Below, in pieces: positions 7,801 through 55,803 of a stretch of 64,000 bases of DNA. A model generated the notes under the pieces. It did not search any database. It saw nothing but the letters and a program-made list of their open reading frames with translations, and was not told the origin of the DNA. The position numbers and the translations under genes are program-made. Numbering within the stretch: position 1 is the stretch's first letter; every line of letters starts with the position of its first letter. Location of the stretch: the NCBI GenBank assembly GCA_963780985.1, contig CAWAEF010000003.1:110693-174692 (forward strand). The letters are read 5' to 3'. This DNA is from an uncultured Alphaproteobacteria bacterium (GTDB taxonomy: Bacteria; Pseudomonadota; Alphaproteobacteria; JAGOMX01).

Positions 7801-8190
7801 TTAATGTCTCAAAGGAGGCTCCGTAGACAGGGTGACATCAACCCGCAAATGCTCGAAGGTAACCTGTGGCATAATCTCACCTGTCTTTTTACGCTTCAGC
7901 CTAACGAGCCCATAGCGTTCCATTGTCCGCAATGTGCGCGATAAGTTGCTCTTATGGCGGCCTGACAGCTCAGACAACTCGGTCATTGACTGAGGCTTGG
8001 TTTGAGCAATAAGCTCGAGTAATAATTTGTTAGGAGTTGAAAGAACTTGTGCCAGAGACTCCAATGAATTAAACCAAATCTTAGGCTCACTGGCCGTGGG
8101 CTTATGCTCGCCCCGTGCGATAGCCATAGTACGGTTCCAAATGTCATCATAAGAGGCAATGCCAACCCGCAGAATATGTACGTTTCTCAT
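7801..8190 (-). CDS. Winged-HTH (MarR-like) DNA-binding protein, possible antitoxin-like partner of the upstream small gene.
   Basis: HTH segment MTELSELSGRHKSNLSRTLRTMERYGLVRL. The coding region directly abuts the upstream small ORF (2 nt apart). Confidence 0.4.
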   Translation of the reverse strand: MRNVHILRVGIASYDDIWNRTMAIARGEHKPTASEPKIWFNSLESLAQVLSTPNKLLLELIAQTKPQSMTELSELSGRHKSNLSRTLRTMERYGLVRLKRKKTGEIMPQVTFEHLRVDVTLSTEPPLRH

Positions 8191-11667: not shown

Positions 11668-12903
11668 ATGAAGTATATTGCATTTATCATTATGATTTTT
11701 ACGTTACCCTTGGCTCATGCTAGCCAGGGAGTATCTGTTGACCCCAACGCCCAAGAAGAAGCGGCTCGCCAGCGCGCACAGGCTCGAAGAGAGCTCAACC
11801 AAGGACTTGCAGAGAACCTGCGGCCACCCAAGAGCAAGCCACAATTAAAACATCTTTGCCAATTACAAGCCATGGAGCTAGACCCCCATTGGACATTTCA
11901 AGGAATGGCTACTTTCTTGGATGTCCAATATCTCTTCCTTGGCAATCTGAACTTGGCGACACTGCCTTCCTCACTTACCCAGCTTAAAAAGCTTGTAACA
12001 CTGGATTTATCAGACAACCGCCTTACAGAAACCCCCTCCTGGCTAACAATGCTCAAAGTATTGGATGAGCTAAGCCTAAATCACAACGAGTTAGACACGA
12101 GCAAAGACTTCCTTAAGGGAGCAAAACACGTAAGAAAGCTGCATCTAAATGGAAACGGCTTCACACAAGTTCCGACCGCTCTTGATGGCATGACGAAACT
12201 GGTAGTCATCGATCTGAAGGATAATAAAATAGAAGAGATTCCAGCCTTTATAAGTAATCTCCCGCTGAGAGGTCTATGCCTTGCGAATAACATGATCGAA
12301 GAACTTCCCGCGCATATGTCACAGATGAGAAACCTTAGAACTCTAGAACTGCAATCAAATTCTTTGCGCTCACTACCAAACTTCCTGTTGAGTCTAGCTA
12401 ATTTAGTTTACGTAGATGTTAGTAACAACAAATATTTAGTGCAAAATAAGACTGCTGAAGCGCTAAGACTACAAGGCAAACTCGATATGACCCAGCAGGT
12501 TGCCACGCAACTTGCTTCAAAAGCGACAAATAATATGGTCGCTACAGTTCAGAACAAGCCCCAGACCCAGGCACCGAGAGCAACGACGGAGCTGAAAGCA
12601 GCCGAGAAAATCAAGCAGCAAGCAGTTGCAAGCACTCCTCAAAAAAGGCCGCGGCCCTCCAAAAAAGACAGCCCAGCCACTGACTTGGATCTAACGCTGG
12701 TGGAGGGCAAAATCGACTCTGTGGCAAAAATCCTCTCGGACGTACAACCTGACCAGAGATTATTAATAGCACTGACTGCTGCAAATCTCCCAAAAAGAAA
12801 CAGCGATTCGACTATATATAATACATTGATCGCCTTGGGAATCGATAATGTCACCGCAGAAAAGATGATGAAGCAACTGCCCAAAGATAAGCAGAATAAG
12901 TAA
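11668..12903 (+). CDS. Secreted leucine-rich-repeat (LRR) protein, eukaryotic-like effector candidate.
   Basis: Signal peptide MKYIAFIIMIFTLPLAHA. About ten LxxLxLxxNxL repeats, for example LVTLDLSDNRLTETP and LRTLELQSNSLRSLP. Confidence 0.75.
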   Translation: MKYIAFIIMIFTLPLAHASQGVSVDPNAQEEAARQRAQARRELNQGLAENLRPPKSKPQLKHLCQLQAMELDPHWTFQGMATFLDVQYLFLGNLNLATLPSSLTQLKKLVTLDLSDNRLTETPSWLTMLKVLDELSLNHNELDTSKDFLKGAKHVRKLHLNGNGFTQVPTALDGMTKLVVIDLKDNKIEEIPAFISNLPLRGLCLANNMIEELPAHMSQMRNLRTLELQSNSLRSLPNFLLSLANLVYVDVSNNKYLVQNKTAEALRLQGKLDMTQQVATQLASKATNNMVATVQNKPQTQAPRATTELKAAEKIKQQAVASTPQKRPRPSKKDSPATDLDLTLVEGKIDSVAKILSDVQPDQRLLIALTAANLPKRNSDSTIYNTLIALGIDNVTAEKMMKQLPKDKQNK

Positions 12904-20599: not shown

Positions 20600-20602
20600 G
20601 GC

Positions 20603-21841: not shown

Positions 21842-22362
21842 GGAACATATTTATTCAATCGGGGTTAGTAGTTATCTTGGTTCTGGCTGGCCTTGGGGGA
21901 AATGCCTATTTATACCAAGCCCGGGAGGAAGCGCGTGGGGAGCTTGCTGGGTTAGATCAATCTTTTCAGCAAAAGCAGGCTTTGATAAAGCTCGCGAGTC
22001 AAAAACCAGATAAGCCATCCATAATCGGCCATCGTCTGGCCATTCCTTGCAATCGCTTATCGGTCAGCGAGGACTTTCAACAGCTGAGCAAAACCTTACG
22101 CTTGGCCCGCCTTGATTTTCAGATCTCGCCTGAGACAACGGTTGAGAATGCCTTTTCAGAATCTATCGTTGAGCTCAAATTCCAGAATCAGTCGGATCAA
22201 CCACTGTTTCATATGATTGCCCACCTGATGGACGAGTTTCCTGGCCTGGTGTATCCCATGGAGATCGTTATGTGGCGAGAGCCTTCTCAAGATAAACCGC
22301 TGATATCTGGCACCTTTCGTTTTTCCTGGTTAAAAGGTGTCACGGAAAAGGTGGCGTCATGA
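21838..22362 (+). CDS. GspM/PilO-like bitopic protein.
   Basis: N-terminal TM IFIQSGLVVILVLAGLGG followed by a coiled-coil-like segment. The gene overlaps its neighbour by 4 nt. Confidence 0.35.
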   Translation: MRNIFIQSGLVVILVLAGLGGNAYLYQAREEARGELAGLDQSFQQKQALIKLASQKPDKPSIIGHRLAIPCNRLSVSEDFQQLSKTLRLARLDFQISPETTVENAFSESIVELKFQNQSDQPLFHMIAHLMDEFPGLVYPMEIVMWREPSQDKPLISGTFRFSWLKGVTEKVAS

Positions 22363-22979: not shown

Positions 22980-23216
22980 ATGGTCGAAATTTTCGGATCA
23001 AAGGACCTAGGAAACATCATCAGGGACTTGCGCAAAAGGGCAGGTTTATCCCAGGAAGCACTTGCGGAACTTGCGGGACTCAGCCGTACGGCTGTGCAGG
23101 CGCTGGAGGGTGGCAAGGAAACGTGCAAATTAATTACTGTGTTTAAGGTCGTGAAGATTTTGAACATTCATGTTCACTTAAGCCACCCACTGATTAGGGA
23201 TATGCCCCATGAATGA
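22980..23216 (+). CDS. hipB: XRE-family HTH protein, HipB-like.
   Basis: LRKRAGLSQEALAELAGLSRTAVQALEGG is a classic HTH_XRE. The gene lies immediately upstream of the split HipA-like genes and overlaps them. Confidence 0.75.
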   Translation: MVEIFGSKDLGNIIRDLRKRAGLSQEALAELAGLSRTAVQALEGGKETCKLITVFKVVKILNIHVHLSHPLIRDMPHE

Positions 23217-23565
23217 ACGTATCCCTACAGAAGGGAACTACAAGCGTCGCTTGCTTATCACATGTCATGGGGTCCCGTGCGGGTATTTTATTCAAACCGA
23301 GAACAATGAATATTCCTTTACCTACTTTGAAGATTATCGGGGCCCTCCCATATCTTTAACCATGCCGGTGCGGTCTGAACCTTACACCTTTAATCGGTTT
23401 CCGCCCTTTTTTGACGGATTGTTGCCAGAAGGCATACTGCTGGAGGCTCTCATTCGGCAGAATAAAATTGATGCCCATGATTACATGGCGCAGCTAGAGG
23501 CCGTTGGAGCCGACATGGTGGGGGCGGTAACTGCCTTGCCTGATTCTATGAAAAAGGGGAAATGA
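23209..23565 (+). CDS. hipS: HipA N-terminal-subdomain-like protein, HipS-like.
   Basis: FPPFFDGLLPEGILLEALIRQ matches the HipA N-terminal motif FFDNLLPEG. 118 aa. Its stop overlaps the next start in ATGA. Confidence 0.65.
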   Translation: MNERIPTEGNYKRRLLITCHGVPCGYFIQTENNEYSFTYFEDYRGPPISLTMPVRSEPYTFNRFPPFFDGLLPEGILLEALIRQNKIDAHDYMAQLEAVGADMVGAVTALPDSMKKGK

Positions 23566-24518
23566 TGCGCTGCCCCATTACTTACGAGGAACTTCTTCCC
23601 GGGGAAGAGAAATATAGCGCGGCTGGCTTAAAACGCTTGTCGCCGAATCTCAAGACCTTGAAAGATTTTCCCTATACCATGGAAGAACAGCTGCGAGAGG
23701 CAAATCGCTTAGCTTCTAAACTCTCCATTCAAGGCGTTCAACCCAAACTGAGTGTCGTGCTTGATGTAACCCATGAAACATTTAAGATCACCGATAAGGG
23801 CGGAACCTTTATCCTAAAACCACAAAACCCCCAATGGAATAGCCTGCCCGAAAATGAGGACCTGACCATGCGCCTGGCTGCGCTGGTTGGGATTGAGGTG
23901 CCTCTGCATGGTTTGCTGTACTGCAAAGACGGCGCCTTGAGCTATTGGATCCGCCGCTTTGATCGTCCATCCTTACGAAATCCGACAAACGTAAAGCTAA
24001 GCCTGGAAGATTTTGCCCAGCTGAGCCAAGAAGACCGCCAAACAAAATATAACAGCTCCATGGAAAAGGTGGCCAAAGTCATCCGCGAGTTCTGCTCCTT
24101 CCCCATTATGGAATTAGAAAAGTTGTTTAGGTTAACCATATTTAACTTTGTGGTCGGGAATGAGGACATGCACCTGAAGAATTTTTCGTTAATCACCAGG
24201 GACAACCTGATATCCCTATCCCCGGCCTACGATTTACTTAATTCCACTCTCGCCATGGGCACTGGAACACGGGAGGAAATAGCTTTATCTCTTAATGGGA
24301 AAAGGCAGAAACTGAAGGCAGAAGATCTGATAGATACCTATGGTATTGAACGATTAGAGCTACGCCCTAGTACCGTCAACAAGATCCTGCAGACGATAAT
24401 TGAGGCTCAGCCTCTATGGATAGAACTTATAGACCGAAGCTTCCTGTCGCAAGCGCAAAAAGAGGGCTATAAATCCATTATCCATGAGAGGTTGGAACGG
24501 CTCTTGCGGAACAAGTAA
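23562..24518 (+). CDS. hipT: HipA-family kinase core, HipT-like toxin.
   Basis: P-loop-like GVQPKLSV and catalytic motif VGNEDMHLKNFSL, which matches GNxDxHxKN of HipA. 318 aa. Confidence 0.75.
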   Translation: MMRCPITYEELLPGEEKYSAAGLKRLSPNLKTLKDFPYTMEEQLREANRLASKLSIQGVQPKLSVVLDVTHETFKITDKGGTFILKPQNPQWNSLPENEDLTMRLAALVGIEVPLHGLLYCKDGALSYWIRRFDRPSLRNPTNVKLSLEDFAQLSQEDRQTKYNSSMEKVAKVIREFCSFPIMELEKLFRLTIFNFVVGNEDMHLKNFSLITRDNLISLSPAYDLLNSTLAMGTGTREEIALSLNGKRQKLKAEDLIDTYGIERLELRPSTVNKILQTIIEAQPLWIELIDRSFLSQAQKEGYKSIIHERLERLLRNK

Positions 24519-26689: not shown

Positions 26690-26826
26690 TGCCAGCTTGC
26701 CTCCCCTTGATGCGCAGGGGTCCAGCCCTTAAAATGTGCTGCGTAGCAGCTCCGAAGAAAATACAGAGTCGCTACGCGACGCATTTTGCGCTGGACCCCT
26801 GCTTTCGCAGGGGAGACAAGCTGGAG
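26690..26826. repeat. MITE-like palindromic element, family B, copy 1 (~135 bp with nested hairpins).
   Basis: ccagcttgcctccccttgatgcgcaggggtccagccc...gagtcgctacgcgacgcattttgcgctggacccctgctttcgcaggggagacaagctgg. Three more copies lie at 34.1, 35.4 and 41.7 kb. Confidence 0.65.
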
Positions 26827-26878: not shown

Positions 26879-27676
26879 TCACTTCTTCCCCCGCTCCGCA
26901 AGCGGGTGATTAAAGGCAGGTGGCTGAATGGCGTTGTTTTGTTGTGGAGCCGCTGATGGCTCTTTACATGGGGACTTACCATAAATGCCCATCAGATTGC
27001 GGGCCGTAACCCATTTGACGATTTGTCGGAAGGGTTTACCGCTTTTGTCGGCGCCGTAGGGTTGGTCGTGGAATACTAGTGTTCCGCTGCAGTTGACTTT
27101 TTCTTCGGGGCTCATTGACTCGCTTGGAATGCGTTCTGTTCGTTCACCGGTAAAAGCCCCTTGCCCGCTGGGTCCGTGGCTGATGAGAACCAGGGCGACA
27201 AAGTCTTGGGACCTGTCATGGTTTTGGGGATAGATCACTTCACCTTTAACTTTCAAGGTTATTGGGGACCTAGGTGACTTTCCGCAGAACTTATTGGTAC
27301 CGGAGGGGCTCGGAAGCGAATCGATGAAAACTGGGATAGCATAGGTCATATAACGGCCAAAGCCGTCTTTGGCTTGGGATTCGGTCAGGCCTAGCGTCCG
27401 ATAAGGCACGATGCCGACAGCCTTGTTAGGTTCCGTGACCGTCTCGGACTCCCCTTTCTTGGAGGGATCTGCGGGACCGGGCAGCTCGCCCGTCATTACC
27501 AGATAAGAGGCCACCGCTTGGGTAACCAGTTCTTGTCGCTCTTTGGTTTCCCGCAGGCTCGCCTGTTGGCGATAGCGCAGCAAAGAGGGCATCGCCGCCC
27601 CCAGCACGAGCCCCATGACGATCAGGACGATCGCCAACTCAAACAGTGAGAAACCAGCCCGGGCATGATTTTTCAT
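26879..27676 (-). CDS. Type IV pilin / pseudopilin-like protein with a large C-terminal domain.
   Basis: Prepilin leader MKNHARAG followed by FSLFELAIVLIVMGLVLGAA (G-F-S-L-x-E motif). A C-terminal Cys pair is present. Start placed at the internal Met at 27676. Confidence 0.65.
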   Translation of the reverse strand: MKNHARAGFSLFELAIVLIVMGLVLGAAMPSLLRYRQQASLRETKERQELVTQAVASYLVMTGELPGPADPSKKGESETVTEPNKAVGIVPYRTLGLTESQAKDGFGRYMTYAIPVFIDSLPSPSGTNKFCGKSPRSPITLKVKGEVIYPQNHDRSQDFVALVLISHGPSGQGAFTGERTERIPSESMSPEEKVNCSGTLVFHDQPYGADKSGKPFRQIVKWVTARNLMGIYGKSPCKEPSAAPQQNNAIQPPAFNHPLAERGKK

Positions 27677-27683
27677 CGGGCAC

Positions 27684-28349
27684 CTAGAACTGGAAATACA
27701 TGATGCAAGCAGGCGCCTGATTCTTTGTGTTGTATTTGCCATCGGCCGTCACACAACTGTTGGCTGGCACATCGGCCCCATCCCTGGAGAGGACCTTGCC
27801 ATTGTTGGGCAGACCATTATCGATTTTTTTGTCCAGGCTCATGGCCTGTTGCGGCGTCAGCAGCGCTTTGTTGCCATGAGGTCCGTTTTCGCCCCCGAGC
27901 ACAAACCAATGCTTGCCATCCTCATACTTAACGGTTATACCGCCGCCAATGCGAGCTGAAGGCGCTCCCTTATCAAAGTGCAATGCGGCACCCGTAGCCT
28001 CCCCCGGCGCAGGTATTAAGCCGGCACCAGCCAGATGAGCCCAGAATTGGCCTGCTTCACTGTCACGCTCAAGCCCGTTAGCGTCTATCTTGCCATCCCC
28101 GTTACCATTCTTGAGGTTTTCGCTGATATAGTCCCGAGCGCCTGCAAAATCACCGGGCATCGCATCAAACATATCCATGAAGGTACCTGTGGCAACTCGA
28201 TATTCGTTTAACTGAGTCAAGACAGACTTCAGACGCGCGCTTTCAATCAACTCCCGCCCCTTAAGAACGCCGCCGATAATGAGGCCAATAACGATTAAGA
28301 CAATCGCCAACTCGACCAGACTGAAACCGGAATTATGATGATTTTTCAA
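27684..28349 (-). CDS. Type IV pilin / pseudopilin-like protein (tandem paralogue), probable TTG start.
   Basis: L/MKNHHNSG followed by FSLVELAIVLIVIGLIIGGV. The TTG codon at 28349 is preceded by a ggagat RBS. C-terminal Cys pair CVTADGK...APAC. Confidence 0.6.
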   Translation of the reverse strand: MKNHHNSGFSLVELAIVLIVIGLIIGGVLKGRELIESARLKSVLTQLNEYRVATGTFMDMFDAMPGDFAGARDYISENLKNGNGDGKIDANGLERDSEAGQFWAHLAGAGLIPAPGEATGAALHFDKGAPSARIGGGITVKYEDGKHWFVLGGENGPHGNKALLTPQQAMSLDKKIDNGLPNNGKVLSRDGADVPANSCVTADGKYNTKNQAPACIMYFQF

Positions 28350-28433
28350 GGCGATCTCCCAACTATTTTCGTTAGGTATACGCCTGACCGGGACGAAACA
28401 CAAGGGAGAGATTGCAATTAAGGTGGTTTAGGC

Positions 28434-28892
28434 CTACATCCGCAAATCGCGGGCAATCATGAAGGACCAAAACGTCTCGAGATTGTCCATGGTGCGAACC
28501 AAACCATTCAGATCCTCCGGAGTGATATTATTCCTTTGGAAGTTATTGATATGGCGCGTCAGCATTTCTTCCAGCTTGTCATAGAGCTTCACGCCCTTTT
28601 CGGACAGCCTAATGACGCTTGAGCGACGATCGTGGACGGATTGCTGCTGGTCCAGGTAGCCGTTTTCGACCATCTTTTTAAGGTTATAGGTCACGTTTGA
28701 CCCAAGGTAATACCCGCGGTTACTGACTTCACCTACGGTCATTTTATTTTTGCCGATATTGTACAGAATGACGCCTTGGACGTTGCTGATATCGACGATG
28801 TGGAGTCTGTCGAGCTCGGACTTGACTACATCAAGAAACAGCCTGTGCATTCTCTCTATCGTCATTATGATTTCAAAATATTTTTCTATCAC
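28434..28892 (-). CDS. MarR-family transcriptional regulator.
   Basis: Winged HTH VILYNIGKNKMTVGEVSNRGYYLGSNVTYNLKKMVENGYL, 152 aa. Confidence 0.7.
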   Translation of the reverse strand: MIEKYFEIIMTIERMHRLFLDVVKSELDRLHIVDISNVQGVILYNIGKNKMTVGEVSNRGYYLGSNVTYNLKKMVENGYLDQQQSVHDRRSSVIRLSEKGVKLYDKLEEMLTRHINNFQRNNITPEDLNGLVRTMDNLETFWSFMIARDLRM

Positions 28893-29021: not shown

Positions 29022-30038
29022 ATGCACACACCCAAAAAGATTGCTATTGGCCTACAAGGCGGCGGCAGCCATGGGGCTTTTTCCTGGGGGGTGCTGGATG
29101 CATTGCTGGCTGATGACCGTATTGATATCGTAGGACTCAGTGGCACCAGCGCCGGCGGCATGAACGCAGCCGCCACCCTGCAGGGCTTTAACAAGGGTGG
29201 CCGCGAGGGAGCTCGAGCGGAATTGCGTCGTTTTTGGGAGATGGTGCACAAGACAACCGCTGAATCTGCCATGCGCCCTACTCCTTTTAAATCTATGATG
29301 GGAAGCCACAGCCTACGGGGATCTCCCGTGTATGCTTGGATGAACATGATGCGGGATTTTTACTCGCCATACGAGCTCAATCCTTTGGATATAAATCCAT
29401 TAAAGACCTTGGTTCACGATTTCTTCGATTTGGACATTCTTCACAAACGAAGTAAAATGAAGGTCTTTTTGTGCGCCACCCAGGTTAGAACAGGCAAGCT
29501 ACATATTTTCAAAGGAAAGGAACTTACAGAAAGCGCGCTCCTGGCAAGCGCCTGCTTACCATCGCTGTTTAGGGCCGTGGAAGTGGACGGCGAATTCTAT
29601 TGGGATGGCGGTTATGTAGGCAACCCTGCTATATACCCGTTGATCTATAATTGCCCCACGAGAGATATCGCCATCATACAAATCACCCAAGCCCATAGAG
29701 AGCTTATCCCCAACACAGCGGATGCCATCGCTGACCGGCACCAAGAGATTACCTATAACGCTTGCCTTATGCACGAGATCCGGGCCATTTACTTTATTTC
29801 GAAGATGGTTGAAAAAGGGATAGTGAACGATAAATCCATCAAGATACTTAATCTCCATGTGATCAGGGATCGCGAGTTTTTTGAGGAATTGGACCTGTCG
29901 ACGGCCATGAATACGGACTGGAATTTTCTGCTGAAACTGTTTGAGGCTGGTAAACGCAGCGGTGAAAAGTGGCTCGAGGACCATTACGATGATATCGGTG
30001 TTCGTTCCTCGGCCCAAATTGAAGAGGATTTTATTTGA
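29022..30038 (+). CDS. Patatin-like phospholipase.
   Basis: GLQGGGSHGAFSWGVLDAL (oxyanion GGGxxG) and GLSGTSAGG (GxSxG nucleophile elbow), 338 aa. Confidence 0.8.
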   Translation: MHTPKKIAIGLQGGGSHGAFSWGVLDALLADDRIDIVGLSGTSAGGMNAAATLQGFNKGGREGARAELRRFWEMVHKTTAESAMRPTPFKSMMGSHSLRGSPVYAWMNMMRDFYSPYELNPLDINPLKTLVHDFFDLDILHKRSKMKVFLCATQVRTGKLHIFKGKELTESALLASACLPSLFRAVEVDGEFYWDGGYVGNPAIYPLIYNCPTRDIAIIQITQAHRELIPNTADAIADRHQEITYNACLMHEIRAIYFISKMVEKGIVNDKSIKILNLHVIRDREFFEELDLSTAMNTDWNFLLKLFEAGKRSGEKWLEDHYDDIGVRSSAQIEEDFI

Positions 30039-34219: not shown

Positions 34220-34451
34220 GTGACAAACGTCACTCCACCACCCTTCGAGTCAATTCTCACACTTACCGTCATTCAAGCACAGCTGGACAACAATTCCAAC
34301 TAGTTTTATATATATAGATAGGGGCGCTAGTTATCTCGTTTTTTTGCTAATCTTTTCTGACTCTTCCCTTGCAATTTCTTAAGAAAACATTATATAATAT
34401 ATATGTCAGGAAACTGACTATGGCGATAAACGTCTTATGGAATAGGCGATG

Positions 34452-34790
34452 TGGACCCGGGGGCGGTACCCGGCGCCTCCACCAAAAATGGTCACGATGT
34501 GACCCTTTCTGTGGGGGCGAAATAGGATCGACACGCGTAATAAAGATATGATTTTTGCTCGGTAGGCACCACCGTTATCGGACCATTGTTATAAGTGCAA
34601 ACTTTAACTTTAAAAACTTGGCTATGGGTCAGGATAATTTCGCTACTGCAGCTGCAGCCGCTTAATTGTTAGACTAAGCCAGCGGTCGGGGGCGCCGGGC
34701 AACAGAAAGCCCCCACTTATTTATGTGCCTGCCCAAGGGGAAGTTAATAACGCCCGAGTGGGCGGCACTGTTATATGCGAACTAAAGAGT
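34452..34790 (+). ncRNA. ssrA: Circularly permuted (two-piece) tmRNA gene. The acceptor piece ends in CCA at 34481-34484, a ~28-nt intervening hairpin follows, and the coding piece starts with GGGGGCG at 34513. The 3' boundary is approximate.
   Basis: The 5' GGGGGCG (34513-34519) pairs with the upstream CGCCUCC+ACCA to give a 7-bp acceptor stem with a G3·U70 wobble (the Ala identity element). T-stem CCGGG/CCCGG. AGGATCGAC resembles the conserved GGAUUCGAC. An in-frame tag ORF ...(A)NFNFKNLAMGQDNFATAAAAA ends at TAA 34663-34665. The SspB-like gene follows immediately. Confidence 0.55.
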
Positions 34791-35410: not shown

Positions 35411-35555
35411 ATCGCCACCAGCTGCCTCCCCTGCGAAAGCAGGGGGCCAGCGCAAAATGCGTCGCGTAGCGACTCTGTGCTTCTATATAGAGCTGCTTCG
35501 CAGCGCATGTTAAGAGCTGGACCCCTGCTTTCGCAGGGGAGGCAGCTGGTGGCGA
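35411..35555. repeat. MITE-like palindromic element, family B, copy 3.
   Basis: tcgccaccagctgcctcccctgcgaaagcagggggccagcgcaaaatgcgtcgcgtagcgactctg...gctgcttcgcagcgcatgttaagagctggacccctgctttcgcaggggaggcagctggtggcga, a perfect long palindrome. Confidence 0.65.
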
Positions 35556-36132: not shown

Positions 36133-36316
36133 AGCTTTCTCCCAGAACCCTTATACTACTATTGTAATGCGGAGAGATTAAGAAAGGGTAAAACTATTGT
36201 TTTACCGATATATTTGGTCACCACCTCTATCATTTCTCAGTATTTTTTACGGTTGCACAGCGTCACACCATTGAGTAAGGTTACCTCGTTAAACAGATAA
36301 CCGATGGGAGTTCCTC

Positions 36317-37357
36317 ATGTTAAGAAAGACATCAAATCTATTGGCCAGTTGGTATTTACCGGCCGCAAAAACCGTAAAGATCGCTGCCCTGACTGGGCTT
36401 GTGCTTGCTTCCCTACCGGAAGCAAATGCATGCAGGCTGCTGCGTGCTGAGGGCGCCGCCGTGGCGCGCACTTCCGCCTTTACGGGGACGACAACCCATG
36501 TTGCAAGACCTACAACACTTGTACAGGCTCGGACCTATGCTACCGGTAGAACCATGCTTAACAGAAACTGGACTACGGTACTAAAAGCCACACTCGCCAC
36601 AAGCACCATGGCTGGGATGGCAGCTTTAGCCGAAGCAGATAAGGGACCCGCTAACGAACTGCCATTTCTCTCGGCTGCACAAGCCGAACTTTTAAAGACA
36701 GCACAAATTATCGGAGAAGATAAATTTTTCTCCGAAGACGTCATAAAGCTGATGGAGAAGCAAAAAAGAACTTTTGTCTGTCATTTGTTGGCAGATAAGC
36801 GCCCAATCATGCTAAGCAGATTCGAAGTGCCCAAAACCAACGAGGCAGATCGGGGCTTCAGGCACTTTTCTTTCTATCCCCGCACGGGGGACTTCCGAGT
36901 AATCAATGAGATATTGATTGTAGGACAAGAGGGCCATTCCGGCTATACGCACAACGGTCCTTACGTAGACGTTTGGGTACAGCTGAACACAAAAAATTGG
37001 AATGAATTTCAAAAAGCTTCATTTGAACGTTTCTACCCTTATAATCCGCTTAGAAAACAAGGCGACATGAGCGAGATGGCCTATATGGATGGACAAGATT
37101 TAGCCATCATGCAGCTTTTTCTAAGCCAAGATCCTGACATGGTCTACATTAAGTTAGCTTATAATCCCTTATTTTATAAGGAGAAAAACTGCATTGCTAA
37201 CTTTGCACTTTTCGGGGCACTGAGTGAGGATGCTGCCAGACTACTCATGGCACAAATAGCTTTTGAGGCAGACCTCGCAAAAGGAAAACGCGCCCGCGCG
37301 GAGGAACTACAGGTTGCACTTTTGGAACTCACAAGTTCCCTAAGATCCAAGAAGTAA
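36317..37357 (+). CDS. Secreted hypothetical protein.
   Basis: Signal peptide with Ala-rich N-terminus. 346 aa. A weak copy of the 19-bp box lies upstream at 36236-36254. Confidence 0.55.
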   Translation: MLRKTSNLLASWYLPAAKTVKIAALTGLVLASLPEANACRLLRAEGAAVARTSAFTGTTTHVARPTTLVQARTYATGRTMLNRNWTTVLKATLATSTMAGMAALAEADKGPANELPFLSAAQAELLKTAQIIGEDKFFSEDVIKLMEKQKRTFVCHLLADKRPIMLSRFEVPKTNEADRGFRHFSFYPRTGDFRVINEILIVGQEGHSGYTHNGPYVDVWVQLNTKNWNEFQKASFERFYPYNPLRKQGDMSEMAYMDGQDLAIMQLFLSQDPDMVYIKLAYNPLFYKEKNCIANFALFGALSEDAARLLMAQIAFEADLAKGKRARAEELQVALLELTSSLRSKK

Positions 37358-37527
37358 AATACACACATCCGCAACGCCGGGGATAACTTTCCCCGGCCAC
37401 GGGTAACCGCTGATGGGCCTTGTAGGCATCATCCCTTCTACTGACGCTATAACCGATTTTCTTGACATTTTTGCATAAACACACCATATGAAGACAGAGG
37501 CTTGATTAGTCTTTTGTTGGGGAATTT

Positions 37528-48471: not shown

Positions 48472-50670
48472 ATGTTGAAGAGTTCGTATAGGTTGCTGTC
48501 TGCCGTAAGTCTGGCGGCTTTTGTGGGTGCGGAGGTAAGTTGGGCCTCGAGAGAGTCCCATGAGGATGAGGTGCCCGTGGTGGGACAGCTTGCGCTTTCT
48601 CTTCTCGAGTCCCCGCCTGCAAGTCCGAGATGGCCTTCTGTTACCAAGCGTCTGCGTGATGAAGAGTTTGGTGCTCTCAAGCGTCTCAGCTATGAAGAAG
48701 CTGTTGTAAAAGCATATCCCCGACTGCCGAGCAGTGATGTTTGTCGGCTGACAGAACAGCTCATGAGAGAGGTTGGCGAGCCTGATGCTGATCTGAACTT
48801 TTATATCCCCTTTGCCTTGGAAACTATAATTATGCATGAGTTACCCATTGGGCCTTATGTGAATGGTATCGGACAGGCTAAGAAGTACATCAAAAAAGGT
48901 CATTCCATCTATGATGCGGTTTTGCGAGTACAAACCAGATATGAAAGACGCAGACTGAAGAATGAGTATCGTTATCTTGAGGAGGCCGTCTTTAAAAAAA
49001 TGGCGGAGTTGCGTACGTCTACGCAAATGGATGAAAAAGCAGCGCTGTTGGCGGCTCTAGATCCGTTTCCCTTCCAACGAGAGAGTGAAGATGACTGGTC
49101 TGTATGGCCCCTTGTTACACCTGACCCAAATGACACAAGCACCGGAACTTTTCTTGCAAAAGCGATTCTGGAAGAAAAGAAGTCCGTGCTTACCGCGTTT
49201 GCGGAATTTTGCATCATGAAAGACATTGAATGGCTTGGGCTGCCGGAAGAAGAAGCAAAGAATATGTCCGCATATGCTCGTGAATTTCATCCATCACAAC
49301 CTTTTTTCGCTAAGGTGTTATGTACGTATCTCATGGATCAAGGCCTTTACCCATATCTCATAAAGCTCACCGTTGATGAGGTGATCAAAGAACATTCCGT
49401 CGCTGCCGTGTTGCATAAGCATAGACGAGAAGTTTTTCGTCGCCTCTGGCGGGGTCTCACGGACGCCCAAGTATCTCGTTTTTCAGAACTGGATGATGTC
49501 AAACACATGAATCCAAAAATCTGTTTCTTGTACTATATGGACAATGTCGATGACTACCGTAAGCGATTAGATTTGAGTACATTCCTGTTAAAGGAATTGA
49601 GGGCGGAACTAGCTAGTGAGGTTGTTAGTCATGTGTCCTCTAATCTCAAAAGGGGATATGCCCTAGAGGAATCCTTAAAACGAGCCCCCTTCTGTCATGG
49701 TTTTTTCACTGACAATTGTGACGAAATGCGAAAAAAATGGGACTTTACTGAGCATGGTTCCCAACATTCCTTTTTACGCTTGATGGAAGAGGCAGCTAAT
49801 CTTACCTATGACAAGCTGCGAGAGGACTATGAGAAGGGCGTCAATAGGACATTAGGCTTCCGCCTTGCGATAGAGAAAATTGGTCAATTCGCGCCGCCGC
49901 ATCCTTTAATCCAGGAAACACTGGTTCTTCGCAAGCTTTATTACGACGCAATTTATCGACGGATGATGGGAGAGGACCGCGGATGGATCACCGGTAGGGA
50001 CTGGATTGGCAACCAAGTGGAAAGTGATCGCCTTGTTTTTATTCAGAACGTGGCGAACAATAAAACAATGATTGCCAATAAATTTGCGGCACATATGACC
50101 CAGGTGCCTTATGAACAGGTAAAAAGAGGTATCGATGTGAATGCCCGCCTCGTCTGGTATAACTGCTTTGGCAGTGGGTTGGTTGGTGATTCTGAAGGGG
50201 CTGAGAGAGTGTTGACTGAATTGATGGTCGTTGAATTTGTCTTGTGGTTACAAACCATGACCGACCCCTACTCTACCGTCTTGAAATTAATCTCTAATGA
50301 TTTTAAGGAAGCCTTTACAGCCACATTTGGTTTTTGGTACCAGCACTTATATTCGACCGAAATAACCGGCATGGACATGTTAACTCCAGCCACCGTGGGA
50401 GCCTTCGGGGAAGGTATAGCAAAGCACATGCTTGAAAAGCGTGTTATGGGTTATAGCGAGGCAAGACGTGAGGTTTACAAGAATATGTTGGAGACCCGTT
50501 CGGAGCTGCAACAGGAGTACACTTATATGCCTTATGAGACCATTAAAGATTTGGCCATGACAAAGGTTCTTGGTATTAGTTCATGCTCTGATCCAACACC
50601 TGCAGGCTTTAACGCACAACTGGCGAAAGCAAAGGCGCTGTATCCGGCTCCGGCTGAGATGCCAAAGTAA
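48472..50670 (+). CDS. Secreted hypothetical protein (732 aa).
   Basis: Signal peptide LLSAVSLAAFVGAEVSWA. Long ORF with no recognisable catalytic motif. Confidence 0.65.
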   Translation: MLKSSYRLLSAVSLAAFVGAEVSWASRESHEDEVPVVGQLALSLLESPPASPRWPSVTKRLRDEEFGALKRLSYEEAVVKAYPRLPSSDVCRLTEQLMREVGEPDADLNFYIPFALETIIMHELPIGPYVNGIGQAKKYIKKGHSIYDAVLRVQTRYERRRLKNEYRYLEEAVFKKMAELRTSTQMDEKAALLAALDPFPFQRESEDDWSVWPLVTPDPNDTSTGTFLAKAILEEKKSVLTAFAEFCIMKDIEWLGLPEEEAKNMSAYAREFHPSQPFFAKVLCTYLMDQGLYPYLIKLTVDEVIKEHSVAAVLHKHRREVFRRLWRGLTDAQVSRFSELDDVKHMNPKICFLYYMDNVDDYRKRLDLSTFLLKELRAELASEVVSHVSSNLKRGYALEESLKRAPFCHGFFTDNCDEMRKKWDFTEHGSQHSFLRLMEEAANLTYDKLREDYEKGVNRTLGFRLAIEKIGQFAPPHPLIQETLVLRKLYYDAIYRRMMGEDRGWITGRDWIGNQVESDRLVFIQNVANNKTMIANKFAAHMTQVPYEQVKRGIDVNARLVWYNCFGSGLVGDSEGAERVLTELMVVEFVLWLQTMTDPYSTVLKLISNDFKEAFTATFGFWYQHLYSTEITGMDMLTPATVGAFGEGIAKHMLEKRVMGYSEARREVYKNMLETRSELQQEYTYMPYETIKDLAMTKVLGISSCSDPTPAGFNAQLAKAKALYPAPAEMPK

Positions 50671-50743
50671 GTGAAGCTAGCTGCTTATGTATAAAGAATG
50701 CTTGAGCTGAATGCCAGGCTGGACATACGTGAGTATTTGAGAG

Positions 50744-50826
50744 AAAAATGGTGAAGGCCCCTAGTTTTCTAGGGGCCTCAGCCATTCAGAGACTTGCATG
50801 AAAGAACCTTCACCATTTTTTCTTAT
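50744..50826. terminator. Bidirectional rho-independent terminator between convergent genes.
   Basis: aaaaatggtgaaggcccctagttttctaggggcct...gaaccttcaccatttttt. Nested hairpins are flanked by an A-run on one side and a T-run on the other. Confidence 0.55.
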
Positions 50827-50915
50827 AAATACTCAAGCGCTGGAGCAAACAAGGCGATAATAGCCGGTAGTTTGATTACGCCTAGCCCATCCGTTGTACT
50901 ATTATTACGCACAAC

Positions 50916-51617
50916 CTACAAAACATAATCCTGAAGCTTAGCTTGCAATTTTAGCAAGTCGTCATCGTGCTCTTTGATCCAGCTAAAGATCTTATGATGG
51001 CAGCCAGGCAAGGTGTATAGCTCCCTCCTGTCAGCTTTAAAAGCGTGTTCCATTATCAAAGGAATGACCTCTCCAGGAATGATCTCATCCTGATCACCCA
51101 TAATAATTAATAAATTTCCAGTGAAGGTTTTAAGCAAATCGAGGGCATCCGTATTACGCCAGCTTTCTGGTATTCTGATAGCTTCCGTGAAGCCGTCATC
51201 AAAACGAAGGTTATAGGCCTTTTTATCATAAAGAGCGGGACAAAAAAGTATGAGGGTTTCGACCTGGAAGTACTCCAGCATTTTGATGGCGATGTAACCA
51301 CCCATACTTGCCCCACAAACGATCAGTTTATCTGTTGCGGCAAAATCCTCAATCGCTTTGCGCGCCTCTTCACATCTCTTTTTCAAGCTGCTCTTCTTAA
51401 GGTCACCTGTGCTTTTGCCGTGCCCACTGAAATCCATGGCGAGCACATTTGTTCCATCATTCACAAGTGGAGGGATAACATCATATATTCTTTCCTTGTT
51501 TCCGGCGCCCCCGTGAAGAAATATAAAGTTGGGCGGAGCATCTTGTCCATCCTTGGAAAGAATGGCCCCATCGATGATATCTTCATTCACTTTAAACGAA
51601 ATGGGTTTTATGAACAT
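50916..51617 (-). CDS. Alpha/beta-hydrolase fold protein.
   Basis: FIFLHGGAGN and the nucleophile elbow GASMGG, 233 aa. Confidence 0.7.
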   Translation of the reverse strand: MFIKPISFKVNEDIIDGAILSKDGQDAPPNFIFLHGGAGNKERIYDVIPPLVNDGTNVLAMDFSGHGKSTGDLKKSSLKKRCEEARKAIEDFAATDKLIVCGASMGGYIAIKMLEYFQVETLILFCPALYDKKAYNLRFDDGFTEAIRIPESWRNTDALDLLKTFTGNLLIIMGDQDEIIPGEVIPLIMEHAFKADRRELYTLPGCHHKIFSWIKEHDDDLLKLQAKLQDYVL

Positions 51618-51730
51618 AGCTCGTTGTATTCCTATATAGATGGTCCACTTCTCAGTATCTCTGATTATGCAAAATATGCTAGCTGACCACTAGAGAGAAA
51701 CCCACCACGGACCAGCTAGCTTTGCATGAT

Positions 51731-52570
51731 TTATTCTTTAATCAACCCAGACTTGATCAGGGCCGCAAGAAATTCTTCACGGCTCATATCGGGACGGACG
51801 GTTAATGGCGCCTTGATGGTCATACCGTTAAAGGAACCTGCGCCCAAAGTAACGACTATTGCACCGCTGAGGTTGCCGACGGATACTCTATCAGGCGTAT
51901 GTCTTGCCTCTAGGCCATTATCTAATATAAAGGATTCGGTCCAGTTACTTTTTTCGCTGTTCTGTTTAGGCACTTCGTTAGAAGCTTGTGAAGATTGTCT
52001 CGGCTCATCCTCACGATGACTCTCCTCACCAAATGCTTCCCTTTCCCAAGCAAGCGCTGCGTGTATTCTGCCTGGTACAACATAGGTGTCTTGAAATGTG
52101 CTCCACCGAGGGTCAAGGTTAGAATCCATATTTACAGCCTCACATTCAAAATCAGAAGAATCCTCTTCCTCAATAGGGGCAGGAGCAGAAACAGGTTCAG
52201 TCGCAGGTGCGGGTGCGGCGGTTCTCGGACTTATTTCAGAAAAATCAAGGCATTCAACTTCTATACGTACATGTTCATTTTTGCCAGTGATCTTAAGCTG
52301 ATTATCTGTTTTCTTCACTGCCGCAGGTGCGGCAGCCGCTCTTGCCCTTGGAGCAGTGTTTCTGATTTTTGCCCCAGTATCATTCATGATCAAAACCACT
52401 TCTTCATCACCTTCTTCGTCATTCACGGTCTGATTGGAACCCGTCTTTGGGGTAACTTCTGTCCAATACTCCGCATCATCTCCAGCCCTTGACGCAGACA
52501 CCTGATCAACAGAAATCGCAGATAGCGTGCCTAAGGCCATACTTGATACAATCGTAATGTTCTTTATCAT
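51731..52570 (-). CDS. Secreted Ala/Pro-rich hypothetical protein.
   Basis: Signal peptide and low-complexity APAPATEPVSAPAP segment, 279 aa. Confidence 0.5.
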   Translation of the reverse strand: MIKNITIVSSMALGTLSAISVDQVSASRAGDDAEYWTEVTPKTGSNQTVNDEEGDEEVVLIMNDTGAKIRNTAPRARAAAAPAAVKKTDNQLKITGKNEHVRIEVECLDFSEISPRTAAPAPATEPVSAPAPIEEEDSSDFECEAVNMDSNLDPRWSTFQDTYVVPGRIHAALAWEREAFGEESHREDEPRQSSQASNEVPKQNSEKSNWTESFILDNGLEARHTPDRVSVGNLSGAIVVTLGAGSFNGMTIKAPLTVRPDMSREEFLAALIKSGLIKE

Positions 52571-52626
52571 TCTATTTTCCTTTTACGTTATGATGTTTGA
52601 ACTTATCTTTTATGCAACTATTCCGC

Positions 52627-52645
52627 ATCCGTAAAAACTACGGAT
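52627..52645. promoter_or_regulatory. 19-bp perfect palindromic box ATCCGTAAAAACTACGGAT (distal copy upstream of 52784).
   Basis: Identical, including the ccgc flank, to the copy at 47462. 139 nt upstream of the start. Confidence 0.55.
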
Positions 52646-52706
52646 CAACCCTGCACTGTCAGCAAACCCGCATGCGTACTAATTCCATCGAATTATCCTA
52701 AAATTT

Positions 52707-52725
52707 ATCAGTATTTTTTACGGAT
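52707..52725. promoter_or_regulatory. Palindromic box ATCAGTATTTTTTACGGAT (proximal copy upstream of 52784).
   Basis: Same extended motif cctaaaatttATCAGTATTTTTTACGGAT as at 48392. 59 nt upstream of the start. Confidence 0.5.
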
Positions 52726-52783
52726 TCATCAGGCCCGGCTAACTGCTAAGTTCATATGCAAACAACGTATAAGGAGAATATTC

Positions 52784-54226
52784 ATGGTAAAGAATTCACA
52801 TAAATTTTTGTCCATCGCATGCCTGGCTTTGGGCCTTTTCGGTGAGGTCCAAGCAACGGATGAATTTCCTTACCTCGTCGCCGGGGGACGTGGGTCACCG
52901 TTCTCTCCGCCGCATTTTAGTGACAGGGATGATGTGATTTCTTTTCTGGATGATCATCTGGACATCAAGGGAATAGGACTGGTTGACCATACGTGTTTCC
53001 CAAAGATGTCTCTGACATTTTTGAACAATTACCCCCATATCAAAACGCTCGTGCTGAATGGAGTTGTGGCAAATCCGGCGGAGTTTGAACTGCATACTTT
53101 GCAGTACATAACGGTTTTTCATAACGGATTGCGCCCGCGGGATGGCCATCGCCATGATCCTATCTGGCAGGGCTTTGGTAACGTGCCAAACCTGGAGAAA
53201 CTGGACACAACACTGGAACACTTTCCATACCTGGGGGAAATGCCTTTCTTGCAGAAACTGCGACTGACTGAGCAAGATACCCATCTGTATGCACCATACA
53301 ATATTCAAAATATCGGTCGCTATAACTTGAGGGAGCTTAGCATTCATGCGGGTCACCTCACAGATATCTCCCCTTTGGGCCAGCTTACTGGGCTTGAGAG
53401 CTTATGGATCTATGGATTCCAGATAACGTCTGAGGGATTTGAATTCCTGCATCAGCTTCGAGCGTTAAAGCTGCTTGAAATTCAAGACAGCCGGCACATG
53501 GATTTATCCATCCTTAAAGGCCACCCCGCTATGGAAACTCTAGTTCTGGACATGGACCCATACTACAAGGAGACCGCTTGCCCGCAAATTTTTGAAACCT
53601 TACCTAGCCTCAAATCACTGACGTTACGGTGGAATTCTTTAAAAGACATCTCCGCTCTATCTGCATGCAAAAAGCTTGAGGTATTAGTACTATACCGCAC
53701 AAAAATCTCATCCCTAGAAGCCCTGCGGGGACTGCCGATCAGACACCTGGATATAAGTCTTTGCAATGTAAAGGATTTATCACCTATATCTGACATGAAA
53801 AGCCTAGAACTTCTAGATATTGTGTGCAACTACCCACACCATTGGGACGGGCTAAAGGCACACCCCTCATTGAGAAGAATCAAAGCGGCTAAGGGTGATT
53901 TGATAAATCCAACTAAAATTGCGGGGAGCGATTATGGCGAAAATGTAACATGGGATTCAAAATACTTTCTAACAGCTGAAAGTAAAAAGTTCATAGAAGA
54001 GTATGATACGAACATCCCCAATATACCGGAAGGCTATCCCCTTGAGGTTCTGAAAACGGTTCCCCATCTAGAAATGATCGTCACAACGTCCCAGGAGATC
54101 ACACCGACTCTTCTTGAAAACTTTAGACAAGCCCGACCGGATGTGGCCGTTGTCGAATGCGGTCCATGGCAGACGGTAGATATTGACTCTATCAGAAAAT
54201 ATGAGGCTGCTGAGGCGAAGAAGTAG
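52784..54226 (+). CDS. Secreted leucine-rich-repeat protein.
   Basis: Signal peptide. LRR units such as LKSLTLRWNSLKDISALSACKKLEVLVLYRTKISSLEAL and LDISLCNVKDLSPISDMKSLELLDI. 480 aa. Confidence 0.7.
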   Translation: MVKNSHKFLSIACLALGLFGEVQATDEFPYLVAGGRGSPFSPPHFSDRDDVISFLDDHLDIKGIGLVDHTCFPKMSLTFLNNYPHIKTLVLNGVVANPAEFELHTLQYITVFHNGLRPRDGHRHDPIWQGFGNVPNLEKLDTTLEHFPYLGEMPFLQKLRLTEQDTHLYAPYNIQNIGRYNLRELSIHAGHLTDISPLGQLTGLESLWIYGFQITSEGFEFLHQLRALKLLEIQDSRHMDLSILKGHPAMETLVLDMDPYYKETACPQIFETLPSLKSLTLRWNSLKDISALSACKKLEVLVLYRTKISSLEALRGLPIRHLDISLCNVKDLSPISDMKSLELLDIVCNYPHHWDGLKAHPSLRRIKAAKGDLINPTKIAGSDYGENVTWDSKYFLTAESKKFIEEYDTNIPNIPEGYPLEVLKTVPHLEMIVTTSQEITPTLLENFRQARPDVAVVECGPWQTVDIDSIRKYEAAEAKK

Positions 54227-54422
54227 AAAAATTGATGACTCAGGTGGGCCGTACCCATCTGAGTCTGTTTAGATAGGATTGCCATATTTAGTGGGTGTTC
54301 ACGATAATTTAAATTAATGCCTTGCCCAATAATCTCAAAAATGACGAACTTTTAGAACATTGAAGCATTACTCCATCTCCTCAAAAGGTACGTCCGTAGA
54401 CAAGCCACACTTAAAATAAGTT

Positions 54423-54441
54423 ATCCGTATTTTTTACGGAT
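54423..54441. promoter_or_regulatory. 19-bp perfect palindromic box ATCCGTATTTTTTACGGAT.
   Basis: Perfect 7+5+7 inverted repeat 58 nt upstream of the 54499 start. Confidence 0.55.
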
Positions 54442-54498
54442 GTGCCTATTTTTGTCACGTGGTAGAACCAGCTAGATTGTAAATTAGATTACCCTTTA

Positions 54499-55803
54499 AT
54501 GGAGTATACGACAATGTTGAAAATAGTACTTAAATTCGCATCCGCACTGAGCTTGTCTTTGTGCTTAAGTATGGGGGCAACGTGGGCATCCGATGAGGAG
54601 AGTAGTGAAGAGCGTATTAGCGAGCCTGCAGCTCAGAAGTCTTGGTCGGATTATAAACGAGAAGACGCAGCTTATTGGGAAAATCGAAGAATACGGGAGC
54701 AGGCAGAGCTAGAGGAATCAAGAAAACCGCCCGTTTTCTTCCGGCGCGTGGTGCTGGAATCCTATCCACACCTACAGGAGGTGGATATTACCCGGATAAT
54801 TGGGTTACTCACTAAGCTTTTAAATCGCAAAGAGCCTGGAGGTATTGTTCATAAAATACCTGAGTCTGGCCATATAGGACACTGGGATGATCACATGGAA
54901 GATGTAATATCTAAGATGTTTGTGAAACAGCTTTGTACGCCTGATAAGTATAATCAATGGAATCATGAATTCATCTGCCGTGACTGCCCGGGTGAAAAAG
55001 CAATGGAATGGTTGAAACAAGGGCATTCCCTAGAACAAGCGGCAAACATGGCCAGCGCCATGAAAGATCAGAGTATTAGCAAGCCTGCAGCTCAGCCTTC
55101 TTCTGGGTCAGCTCATAAACGAGAAGACGATGATTATTGGAAAAAACGAAAAATACAGGAGCAGGCAGAGCTAGAGGAATCAAGAAAACCGCCCGTTTTC
55201 TTCCGGCGCGTGGTGCTGGAATCCTATCCACACCTACAGGAGGTGGATATTACCCGGATAATTGGGATACTCACTGAGCTGTTAAATCGCAAAGTAGAGC
55301 CTAGAGGTACTGTTTATTTCATAGCTAAATCTGGCAGTACAGGACACTGGGACGAAGACATGAAAGGCTTAATATGTGACATATTTGTGAAACAACTTTG
55401 TACGCCAGAGAGATACAATCAATATAATCATGTCACTATCTGCCGTGACTGCCCGGGTATTAAAGCAATGGAATGGTTAAACAAGGGGTATTCCCTAGAA
55501 CAATCGGCAAATATAGCCCGGATCTGGCAGGATCTTCGAATAAGGTTCCCAAAGCTGGAAGATATTGTCACAACATTATGGGCAACGCTATCTGAGCAAA
55601 ACAAGAGTTTGGGAGAAGGTCCTGCGCTTTTGAAAGCGCTCAGCGAAAGCTCTTGGGTAAGGAATCATCAATTGCACCCTGTAGTTAAGCAGCCCGATTT
55701 TAATGATCCTGTAATCGGAAATTATTTCCTCAACAAAATTTTTATTAATGGAAGCTCATATGGCGACGCTTTTCGTGCATACAAAAATGAGATGAATTTT
55801 TAA
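54499..55803 (+). CDS. Secreted protein built from an internal tandem duplication of a ~154-aa Cys-containing unit.
   Basis: Signal peptide. Two units share ...AELEESRKPPVFFRRVVLESYPHLQEVDITRIIG...FVKQLCTP..ICRDCPG.KAMEWL. A ~108-bp tract (54696-54804 and 55157-55266) is 100% identical at the DNA level. Confidence 0.7.
   Translation: MEYTTMLKIVLKFASALSLSLCLSMGATWASDEESSEERISEPAAQKSWSDYKREDAAYWENRRIREQAELEESRKPPVFFRRVVLESYPHLQEVDITRIIGLLTKLLNRKEPGGIVHKIPESGHIGHWDDHMEDVISKMFVKQLCTPDKYNQWNHEFICRDCPGEKAMEWLKQGHSLEQAANMASAMKDQSISKPAAQPSSGSAHKREDDDYWKKRKIQEQAELEESRKPPVFFRRVVLESYPHLQEVDITRIIGILTELLNRKVEPRGTVYFIAKSGSTGHWDEDMKGLICDIFVKQLCTPERYNQYNHVTICRDCPGIKAMEWLNKGYSLEQSANIARIWQDLRIRFPKLEDIVTTLWATLSEQNKSLGEGPALLKALSESSWVRNHQLHPVVKQPDFNDPVIGNYFLNKIFINGSSYGDAFRAYKNEMNF

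Follow-up and report, generated by a model that had tools for sequence, protein, structure and literature searches.

A 19-bp dyad in an uncultured alphaproteobacterium as the predicted operator of a LuxR-type regulator of orphan, mostly secreted proteins

A 19-bp dyad, hereafter the box, recurs in front of genes for mostly secreted orphan proteins in the 64-kb stretch of an uncultured alphaproteobacterium analysed here (GenBank contig CAWAEF010000003.1, positions 110,693 to 174,692; the window), and a gene for a 275-aa LuxR-type protein (40773..41600, minus strand) lies among the copies. We propose that a LuxR-type activator that responds to a ligand, and most probably the 275-aa protein itself, uses the box as its operator, a reading to which we give a probability of about 0.65. 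A preliminary description of the window had put forward three ideas, namely that the box is regulatory, that it defines a dedicated regulon of mostly secreted orphans, and that the LuxR-type neighbour is the likely regulator; at the level of sequence comparison, all three are supported by the evidence laid out below.

The box and its promoters

The pattern ATCCGTA-N5-TACGGAT matches the window five times at no more than two mismatches, where 0.18 matches are expected, and none of 100 shuffles gave five. When both strands were scanned with a position weight matrix (PWM), seven sites scored 17-32 bits and every other position 13 bits or less. Since the scan leaves only these seven sites in the 64 kb, no housekeeping gene (polA, relA/spoT, thyX, sspB, a resistance-nodulation-division pump and others) has a box upstream, in agreement with the preliminary description. 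The three perfect, two one-mismatch and one weak copies listed there were also all recovered where it had placed them. Each is followed by a -10-like hexamer. The perfect boxes lie at 47462..47480 (reading leftward, with TATAAT at 47440-47435, 21 nt to the left), at 52627..52645 (also leftward, TAAGTT at 52605-52600, serving the divergent gene that starts at 52570) and at 54423..54441 (plus strand, TAGAAC at 54463-54468, ATG at 54499 or 54514). The one-mismatch boxes, both ATCAGTATTTTTTACGGAT on the plus strand, occupy 48392..48410 (TATCAA at 48433-48438, ATG at 48472) and 52707..52725 (TAAGTT at 52747-52752, ATG at 52784), and the weak box, CTCAGTATTTTTTACGGTT with 28.3 bits, occupies 36236..36254 on the same strand (TAAGGT at 36276-36281, ATG at 36317).

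The seventh site had been described as a CCCGTA-N5-TACGGG variant. The variant is there, just past the stop codon of the regulator gene; its extent is 40718..40737, and on the minus strand it reads CCCCGTATTTTTTACGG(G)AT, with CATAAT at 40696-40691. In four contigs of the same species the site is CCCCGTATTTTTTACGGAT, with a perfect proximal arm TACGGAT, and because these contigs lack the extra G of the window copy, we take that G to be probably an assembly error. This view fits the many split genes of the window, found at 12914-15053, 17764-19405, 19341-20599, 23209-24518 and 37528-40384 (RelA/SpoT, the E and F components of a type II secretion system (T2SS), HipA and a large secreted protein). 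Taken together, the split genes and the extra G suggest that the assembly contains homopolymer or indel errors, or else that pseudogenisation has taken place.

Read in the orientation of its T-rich spacer, all window sites are built alike: the distal arm, ATC(C/A)GTA, is followed by a spacer (T/G)TTTT, the proximal arm TACGGAT, usually a G, and then, after a gap of exactly 21 nt (22 in one case), a -10-like hexamer, in outline TAnnnT. Counted over 14 non-redundant promoters of this population, taken from the window and from metagenome contigs, the spacer reads toward the gene in all 14, the proximal arm is intact in 13, and the distal arm carries the C-to-A change in five. G stands directly 3' of the box in 12 of the 14; T or C followed by A is found at +22/+23 in 13, with the sole exception shifted by 1 nt, and T at +27 in 10. 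The start codon lies 58-63 nt past the box at five of the seven window sites and 53-63 nt past it for most promoters overall. Outside the box and the -10 the flanks diverge across the 14 promoters; the 54423 promoter shares its downstream flank (GTGCCCAT...TAGA) with three promoters from outside the window (L061, L096 and L099).

If TAnnnT is the -10 element, the box would span about -52 to -34 and be centred at about -43, the position of a class-II activator, and the -35 region that it overlaps is poor in most promoters (ATGTGC, ATGCGG, ATAGAC). Class-II activator-dependent promoters such as that of luxI have their operator centred at about -42.5 over a weak -35. A promoter for an alternative sigma factor, with the right arm as -35 and TAnnnT as -10, was considered and rejected, since such a promoter would need a spacer of 21 nt and the site has dyad symmetry.

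Genes behind the box

Judged from the orientation and spacing of the boxes, the regulon in the window probably consists of five signal-peptide proteins, one small protein and one promoter that reads leftward from 47462. The signal-peptide proteins are a 346-aa orphan (36317..37357, plus strand, box 36236), a 732-aa orphan (48472..50670, plus, box 48392), a 279-aa orphan (51731..52570, minus, box 52627), a 480-aa leucine-rich-repeat (LRR) protein (52784..54226, plus, box 52707; Pfam LRR_4, E=3e-19) and a 434-aa orphan with an internal duplication (54499..55803, plus, box 54423). The gene at 37528..40384, downstream of 36317..37357, may be co-transcribed with it; split in the window, it is a single gene of 867-951 aa in four related contigs (L001-L004) and encodes the large secreted protein mentioned above.

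Two boxes were reassigned by the rule that the T-rich spacer points toward the gene. The preliminary description had given 52784 both 52627 and 52707; the former is oriented for the divergent signal-peptide gene 51731..52570, which that description had left out. It had also placed every box in front of a signal-peptide gene, which holds for 36317, 48472, 52784 and 54499 and fails for 47559..48359, whose product has no signal peptide. The 47462 box faces away from this gene, and its gap to the best -10 on that side is 2 nt longer. In its own orientation 47462 has a better -10 than any other boxed promoter, and it reads leftward into the convergent gene 42026..47332 from that gene's 3' end; folding of the expected transcript gave no significant structure (z=0.06). 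The promoter may make an antisense or small RNA, and the dyad may also serve 47559 on the plus strand.

The small protein, behind the 40718 box (40349..40588, minus strand), stands alone in the regulon as a clearly cytoplasmic product: a conserved, cysteine-rich 79-aa protein without a signal peptide, with the motif IQEYAxERTCSDGSCD and no match to any family. A 78-aa homologue is encoded behind a perfect box at 5457-5693 of a locus (L059) from the metagenome-assembled genome (MAG) Gw_Bodden_bin_246, the shared motif being IQEYA[ND]ERTCSDGSCD, so that two distantly related alphaproteobacterial genomes have a boxed protein of about 79 aa. The L059 locus is syntenic with the window, and in the alignment the box and the -10 are conserved blocks in otherwise diverged DNA.

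Outside the window, metagenome contigs (JGI/ENA) were scanned for ATCMGTAKTTTTTACGGAT, which gave 87 loci, mostly chance singletons; the GTDB representative genomes that were also scanned do not include the window's own genome. Contigs of this organism occur in peat and soil metagenomes, and samples with such contigs include JGI 3300014838, ERR11563597, SRR6960546, ERR11630400 and ERZ27248494. One peat metagenome that carries them, Ga0182030, yielded nine contigs with the strict box, only one of which maps to the window. The others supply at least seven further boxed promoters (L061, L077/L123, L096/L127, L099, L112, L122 and L132), each of which shows a G directly behind the box and, at +22/+23, either TA or CA. 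A downstream open reading frame (ORF) is readable at six of the seven, and all six begin with a signal peptide. These loci, together with the box/-10 phase kept in 13 of 14 promoters, bear out the claim of a dedicated regulon of mostly secreted orphans. In a crude hydropathy test, 11 of 12 boxed products pass as signal-peptide proteins, compared with about one third of 30 other window genes. Because signal peptides are thus common among unboxed genes as well, the box marks a subset of exported proteins and not all of them. Sequence searches of the targets against Pfam, NCBIfam and the PDB returned nothing beyond the LRR match, and no paralogy was found among the box targets.

Several neighbouring features were noted. 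The gene 42026..47332, divergent from the LuxR-like gene and without a box of its own, encodes a 1768-aa protein with a hydrophobic, signal-peptide-like N-terminus and an N-terminal DUF2608 (E=1e-7), a family seen mostly in Legionella and Coxiella. Between these two genes lies a full copy (41683-41844) of a palindromic element that resembles a miniature inverted-repeat transposable element (MITE), with 49-nt inverted arms and the core GCTTCCCCTGCGAAAGCAGGGGTCCAGC; it is also found at 35424-35543 and about 26700-26817, and its arms have five copies in the window against 0 expected. An unboxed second LRR protein is encoded at 11668..12903 and a patatin-like phospholipase at 29022..30038. T2SS or type IV pilus-like genes occupy 17764-22362 and 26879-28403 (an MshEN plus GspE/PilB ATPase, GspF/PilC and two prepilin-type N-methyl proteins), and this machinery, between 17.7 and 28.4 kb, is possibly the export route of the signal-peptide products after Sec. 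No type III or type IV secretion system (T3SS, T4SS) genes were found in the window. A two-piece (permuted) alpha-type transfer-messenger RNA gene (ssrA, 34365-34756), which marks the window as alphaproteobacterial DNA, directly precedes sspB and the stretch of lower GC (43-47%) with the boxed genes, and it is possible that this stretch is an island inserted next to ssrA.

The candidate regulator

Which protein would read such a box? The 275-aa protein combines a LuxR-receptor ligand-binding fold (residues about 1-200) with a GerE helix-turn-helix (215-261). GerE, its only Pfam match, has the four helices of the LuxR/FixJ factors, and the N-terminal alpha/beta/alpha ligand-binding domain fused to a helix-turn-helix is the arrangement of LuxR receptors and solos. 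LuxR-receptor proteins work as dimers on dyad sites. A word-indexed search with the protein returned only itself; an exhaustive HMMER search found 719 family representatives at E≤1e-10 among 1.84e9 proteins, the hits listed being mostly 260-300 aa long and aligned over nearly their full length. An AlphaFold model built from a 56-member alignment reached a predicted local distance difference test (pLDDT) score of 94.6, against only 41 for a single-sequence prediction, and its ligand-binding domain is most similar to those of LasR, RhlR, YenR, QscR and TraR. Profile comparison with TraR (hhalign) aligned both domains at 92.7% probability.

The same alignment places L, Y, H, V, W and G at the TraR pocket positions W57, Y61, D70, P71, W85 and G113, and the equivalent of D70 is not conserved in the family consensus. 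None of the 56 family members matches Pfam Autoind_bind (PF03472) at E≤0.01, and no Autoind_synth or luxI-type synthase was found among the ORFs scanned across the 64 kb. With L, H and V in place of W57, D70 and P71, an acyl-homoserine lactone (AHL) is an unlikely ligand, and with key AHL-pocket residues absent the label 'quorum sensing' is unwarranted. Structurally, the protein is fairly described as a candidate LuxR solo that would respond to a non-AHL ligand. The likeness to lux-type boxes seen in the preliminary description has to be divided: the LuxR-receptor fold and the dyad stand, whereas the sequence is not a lux box, being 19 bp rather than 20 and lacking CTG-N10-CAG.

Box and regulator across taxa

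Of the 12 strict or near-strict boxes known in this population, seven are gathered in the 18 kb that surround the LuxR-like gene, and one of the seven follows its stop codon by 35 nt. The association recurs at homologous loci. A syntenic locus (L147) encodes a regulator homologue (P0003) that is 43% identical; the DNA around its box has diverged, and a perfect box, ATCCGTACTTTTTACGGAT, stands upstream of the orthologous 326-aa signal-peptide gene, as the counterpart of the weak window box 36236. At another locus (L156), with a regulator about 39% identical, CCCGTA-N5-TACGGG directly follows the regulator stop as it does in the window.

In the reverse test, 134 loci (0.9 Mb) were retrieved from GTDB genomes and metagenomes by the 19-mer alone. 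Five of them (L041, L047, L030, L074 and L094) encode the regulator-specific N-terminal domain at E-values of 1e-24 to 1e-35. Given 719 representatives among 1.84e9 proteins, chance alone predicts at most about 1e-3 hits of this kind in these loci. High-scoring GerE domains are encoded about 0.1-3.6 kb from the box in eight of the 134, which include L026 (Coxiellaceae), L076 and L115. In Legionella impletisoli (L047; NZ_CAAAIA010000003.1, 105-1590), a perfect box precedes a LOG-family (Lysine_decarbox/SLOG) gene by 53 nt, and this gene is directly followed by a 279-aa LuxR-like gene of the same family as the window regulator. This looks like an autoregulated operon, and it might make or modify the ligand. 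In a Coxiellaceae MAG the box separates a signal-peptide gene from a LuxR-type gene that diverges from it, and several low-GC proteobacterial contigs pair the box with a LuxR-type gene; in some of these the intergenic region contains two boxes. Alphaproteobacterial MAGs are likewise among the box-fetched loci with a LuxR-type gene alongside. Variants with the spacer TTTTA or AAAGA occur in other taxa (L030:2593-2772, L049:2433-2451 and L074:134-152), in divergent intergenic regions adjoining LuxR-type or signal-peptide genes; in every case the spacer is an A/T tract and not a mixed sequence. The fold, the box retained at an orthologous locus and the co-occurrence in box-fetched loci uphold the 275-aa protein as the likely regulator.

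Alternative explanations

Several observations weigh against the assignment of the box to this protein as a class-II activator. The upstream region of the regulator gene itself has no box, and neither do three further homologue loci (L151, L155 and L158) in their short contigs. Among the box-fetched loci there are four (L026, L030, L074 and L076) at which the LuxR-type protein encoded closest to the box begins with another, shorter and perhaps PAS-like N-terminus, so a GerE subtype common to two receptor classes may track the box rather than the exact family. The regulon is genome-wide, which means that its regulator could lie elsewhere in the genome. The contigs from outside the window probably come from this genome too, given that they were found in one sample with it, resemble it in GC and in their promoter flanks, and have repeats in common with it. 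The placement at -43 depends on TAnnnT being the -10. Finally, no ORF was found behind the leftward 47462 promoter, which leaves a promoter without an identifiable product.

The most serious alternative keeps the box as a genuine operator and gives it to another regulator, be it a LuxR protein, paralogous or of the PAS type, whose gene lies in another part of the genome, or a dimeric factor of another family, for example one of the MarR-type proteins at 28434..28892 and 7801..8190 (both minus strand). The loci with other N-terminal domains, the at least seven boxed promoters outside the window and the presence of these two winged helix-turn-helix regulators within it speak for such a factor. 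We nevertheless consider it unlikely: seven boxes are gathered within 18 kb around the LuxR-like gene, one directly past its stop; the syntenic orthologue locus retains the box; the regulator-specific N-terminal domain stands beside the box in five independently fetched loci; and neither the MarR-type proteins nor any other transcription-factor family recurs beside boxes, in the box-fetched loci or in the window scans. A comparison of recognition helices between box-linked and unlinked regulators gave no discrimination.

A second alternative accepts the LuxR-type protein and reverses its action. Some LuxR homologues, those of the EsaR type, are repressors, and a protein bound at about -52 to -34 would cover the -35 until a ligand relieved repression. 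At 36236 the overlap even yields TTGCAC-N17-TAAGGT, a usable sigma-70 promoter. Most boxed promoters, on the other hand, combine a poor -35 with a strict box/-10 phase, which is typical of activator-dependent class-II promoters, and the two Legionella analogues studied by experiment, LexR1 and RegK3, activate their targets, with the inverted repeat held at a constant spacing from the -10 (PMC13555631). Repression is accordingly quite improbable to us. That the palindromes are not regulatory at all, and are hairpin terminators or remnants of small mobile repeats in intergenic DNA, is very improbable: a consensus scan does list 54423 as terminator-like, three copies lie at gene ends (40718, 47462 and L157 4290) and a genuine MITE-like repeat exists in the window, yet the stems are only 7 bp without a consistent U-tail, the flanks are unconserved outside box and -10, neither the orientation nor the 21-nt phase to TAnnnT varies, and the same 19-mer stands beside LuxR-type genes in different bacterial classes. 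A terminator or structured RNA had also been dismissed as a candidate on the consensus scan and on the folding of the expected 47462 transcript, and a mobile repeat on the unrelated flanks of the boxes, the MITE-like repeat at 41683-41844 being a different sequence.

Discussion

In the mechanism we infer, for activation rather than repression as for the transcription start positions, the ligand and the fate of the products, a dimer of the 275-aa protein would load with a non-AHL ligand and then bind ATC(C/A)GTA-T5-TACGGAT about 43 bp upstream of the transcription start, over the poor -35 region. The bound dimer would recruit RNA polymerase in class-II fashion to promoters that keep only a -10, and the products would be exported by Sec and possibly then by the T2SS/pilus-like machinery. 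A wider view can be offered only tentatively, at somewhat less than even odds: regulator and operator may form a horizontally mobile pair, common to Legionellales (L. impletisoli and the Coxiellaceae MAG) and to uncultured, probably protist-associated alphaproteobacteria, that wires lineage-specific and often secreted or host-interaction-like proteins (LRR, orphan) to one possibly host-derived signal.

For the study of such organisms, box and phased -10 together provide a sequence handle with which co-regulated, mostly secreted proteins of this peat alphaproteobacterium and its relatives can be listed from metagenomes. The family search in addition nominates several hundred LuxR-receptor-fold proteins for ligand biochemistry.

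How does this system compare with those already described? A text search of the literature returned no paper that uses TACGGAT as an operator together with LuxR. From the lux, tra and las boxes of canonical LuxR, TraR and LasR, the window box differs by its 19 bp (7-5-7), its core CCGTA/TACGG and its obligatory A/T-tract spacer, and the regulator differs by the missing equivalents of D70 and W57 and by the lack of an AHL synthase among the ORFs scanned. Closer are the LuxR solos that do not respond to AHLs, such as PluR/PauR of Photorhabdus and the plant-associated OryR/XccR type, for which an exogenous or host-derived ligand is presumed. They share the ligand-binding domain joined to GerE, the absence of a luxI-type synthase (here within the 64-kb ORFs scanned) and a substituted WYDPWG pocket (here L-Y-H-V-W-G); the window family differs in being too divergent for Pfam Autoind_bind (0/56), and operator and regulon content are unrelated. 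In its logic the system also resembles SsrB of Salmonella pathogenicity island 2, a response regulator with a 7-4-7 site, and VjbR of Brucella, an alphaproteobacterial LuxR-type protein that controls the VirB T4SS: in each case a GerE-family regulator and a palindromic box coordinate scattered, horizontally acquired genes for secreted or effector proteins. Neither of the two has the window box, and the window lacks T3SS and T4SS genes.

The nearest parallel is found in Legionella, where LexR1 (lpg2524) and RegK3 (lpg2557) act as local activators of effector genes (Adler & Segal 2026, PMC13555631). LexR1 is of the LuxR type, its N-terminal part matches no recognisable domain, and its gene is a neighbour of effector genes. 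The protein senses a ligand derived from nutrients and spreads by horizontal gene transfer. Its binding site, an inverted repeat, keeps a constant distance from the -10 of effector genes both nearby and remote. Close homologues are confined to Legionella, where seven species have the protein, L. impletisoli not among them (PMC13555631). The window system shares with LexR1 and RegK3 a LuxR-type protein whose N-terminal sensory domain falls outside Pfam, adjacent as well as distant targets (seven boxes within 18 kb and at least seven elsewhere, as for a local activator), the inverted repeat at a fixed -10 distance, targets that are orphans or eukaryote-like (LRR), and a patchy distribution reminiscent of horizontal transfer, with one box locus (L047) in Legionella itself. 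As the paper describes it, the LexR1 element contains GTC...GAC (Mut-1/Mut-2), which is absent here; the operators differ, and by that description the regulator is probably not an orthologue of LexR1. RegK3 is likened by description, and the box could match the RegK3 operator. The host here is an alphaproteobacterium, and the targets carry Sec signal peptides, where those in Legionella are Icm/Dot substrates.

On this sequence-based comparison, we regard the window system as a new case of the Legionella-like local-activator logic, which adds the same operator beside LuxR-type genes in both Legionellales and Alphaproteobacteria. The concept of the LuxR-type 'local activator' would thereby reach another bacterial class and Sec-dependent cargo, and one operator common to both classes would make a clean case of regulator and operator having been transferred together.

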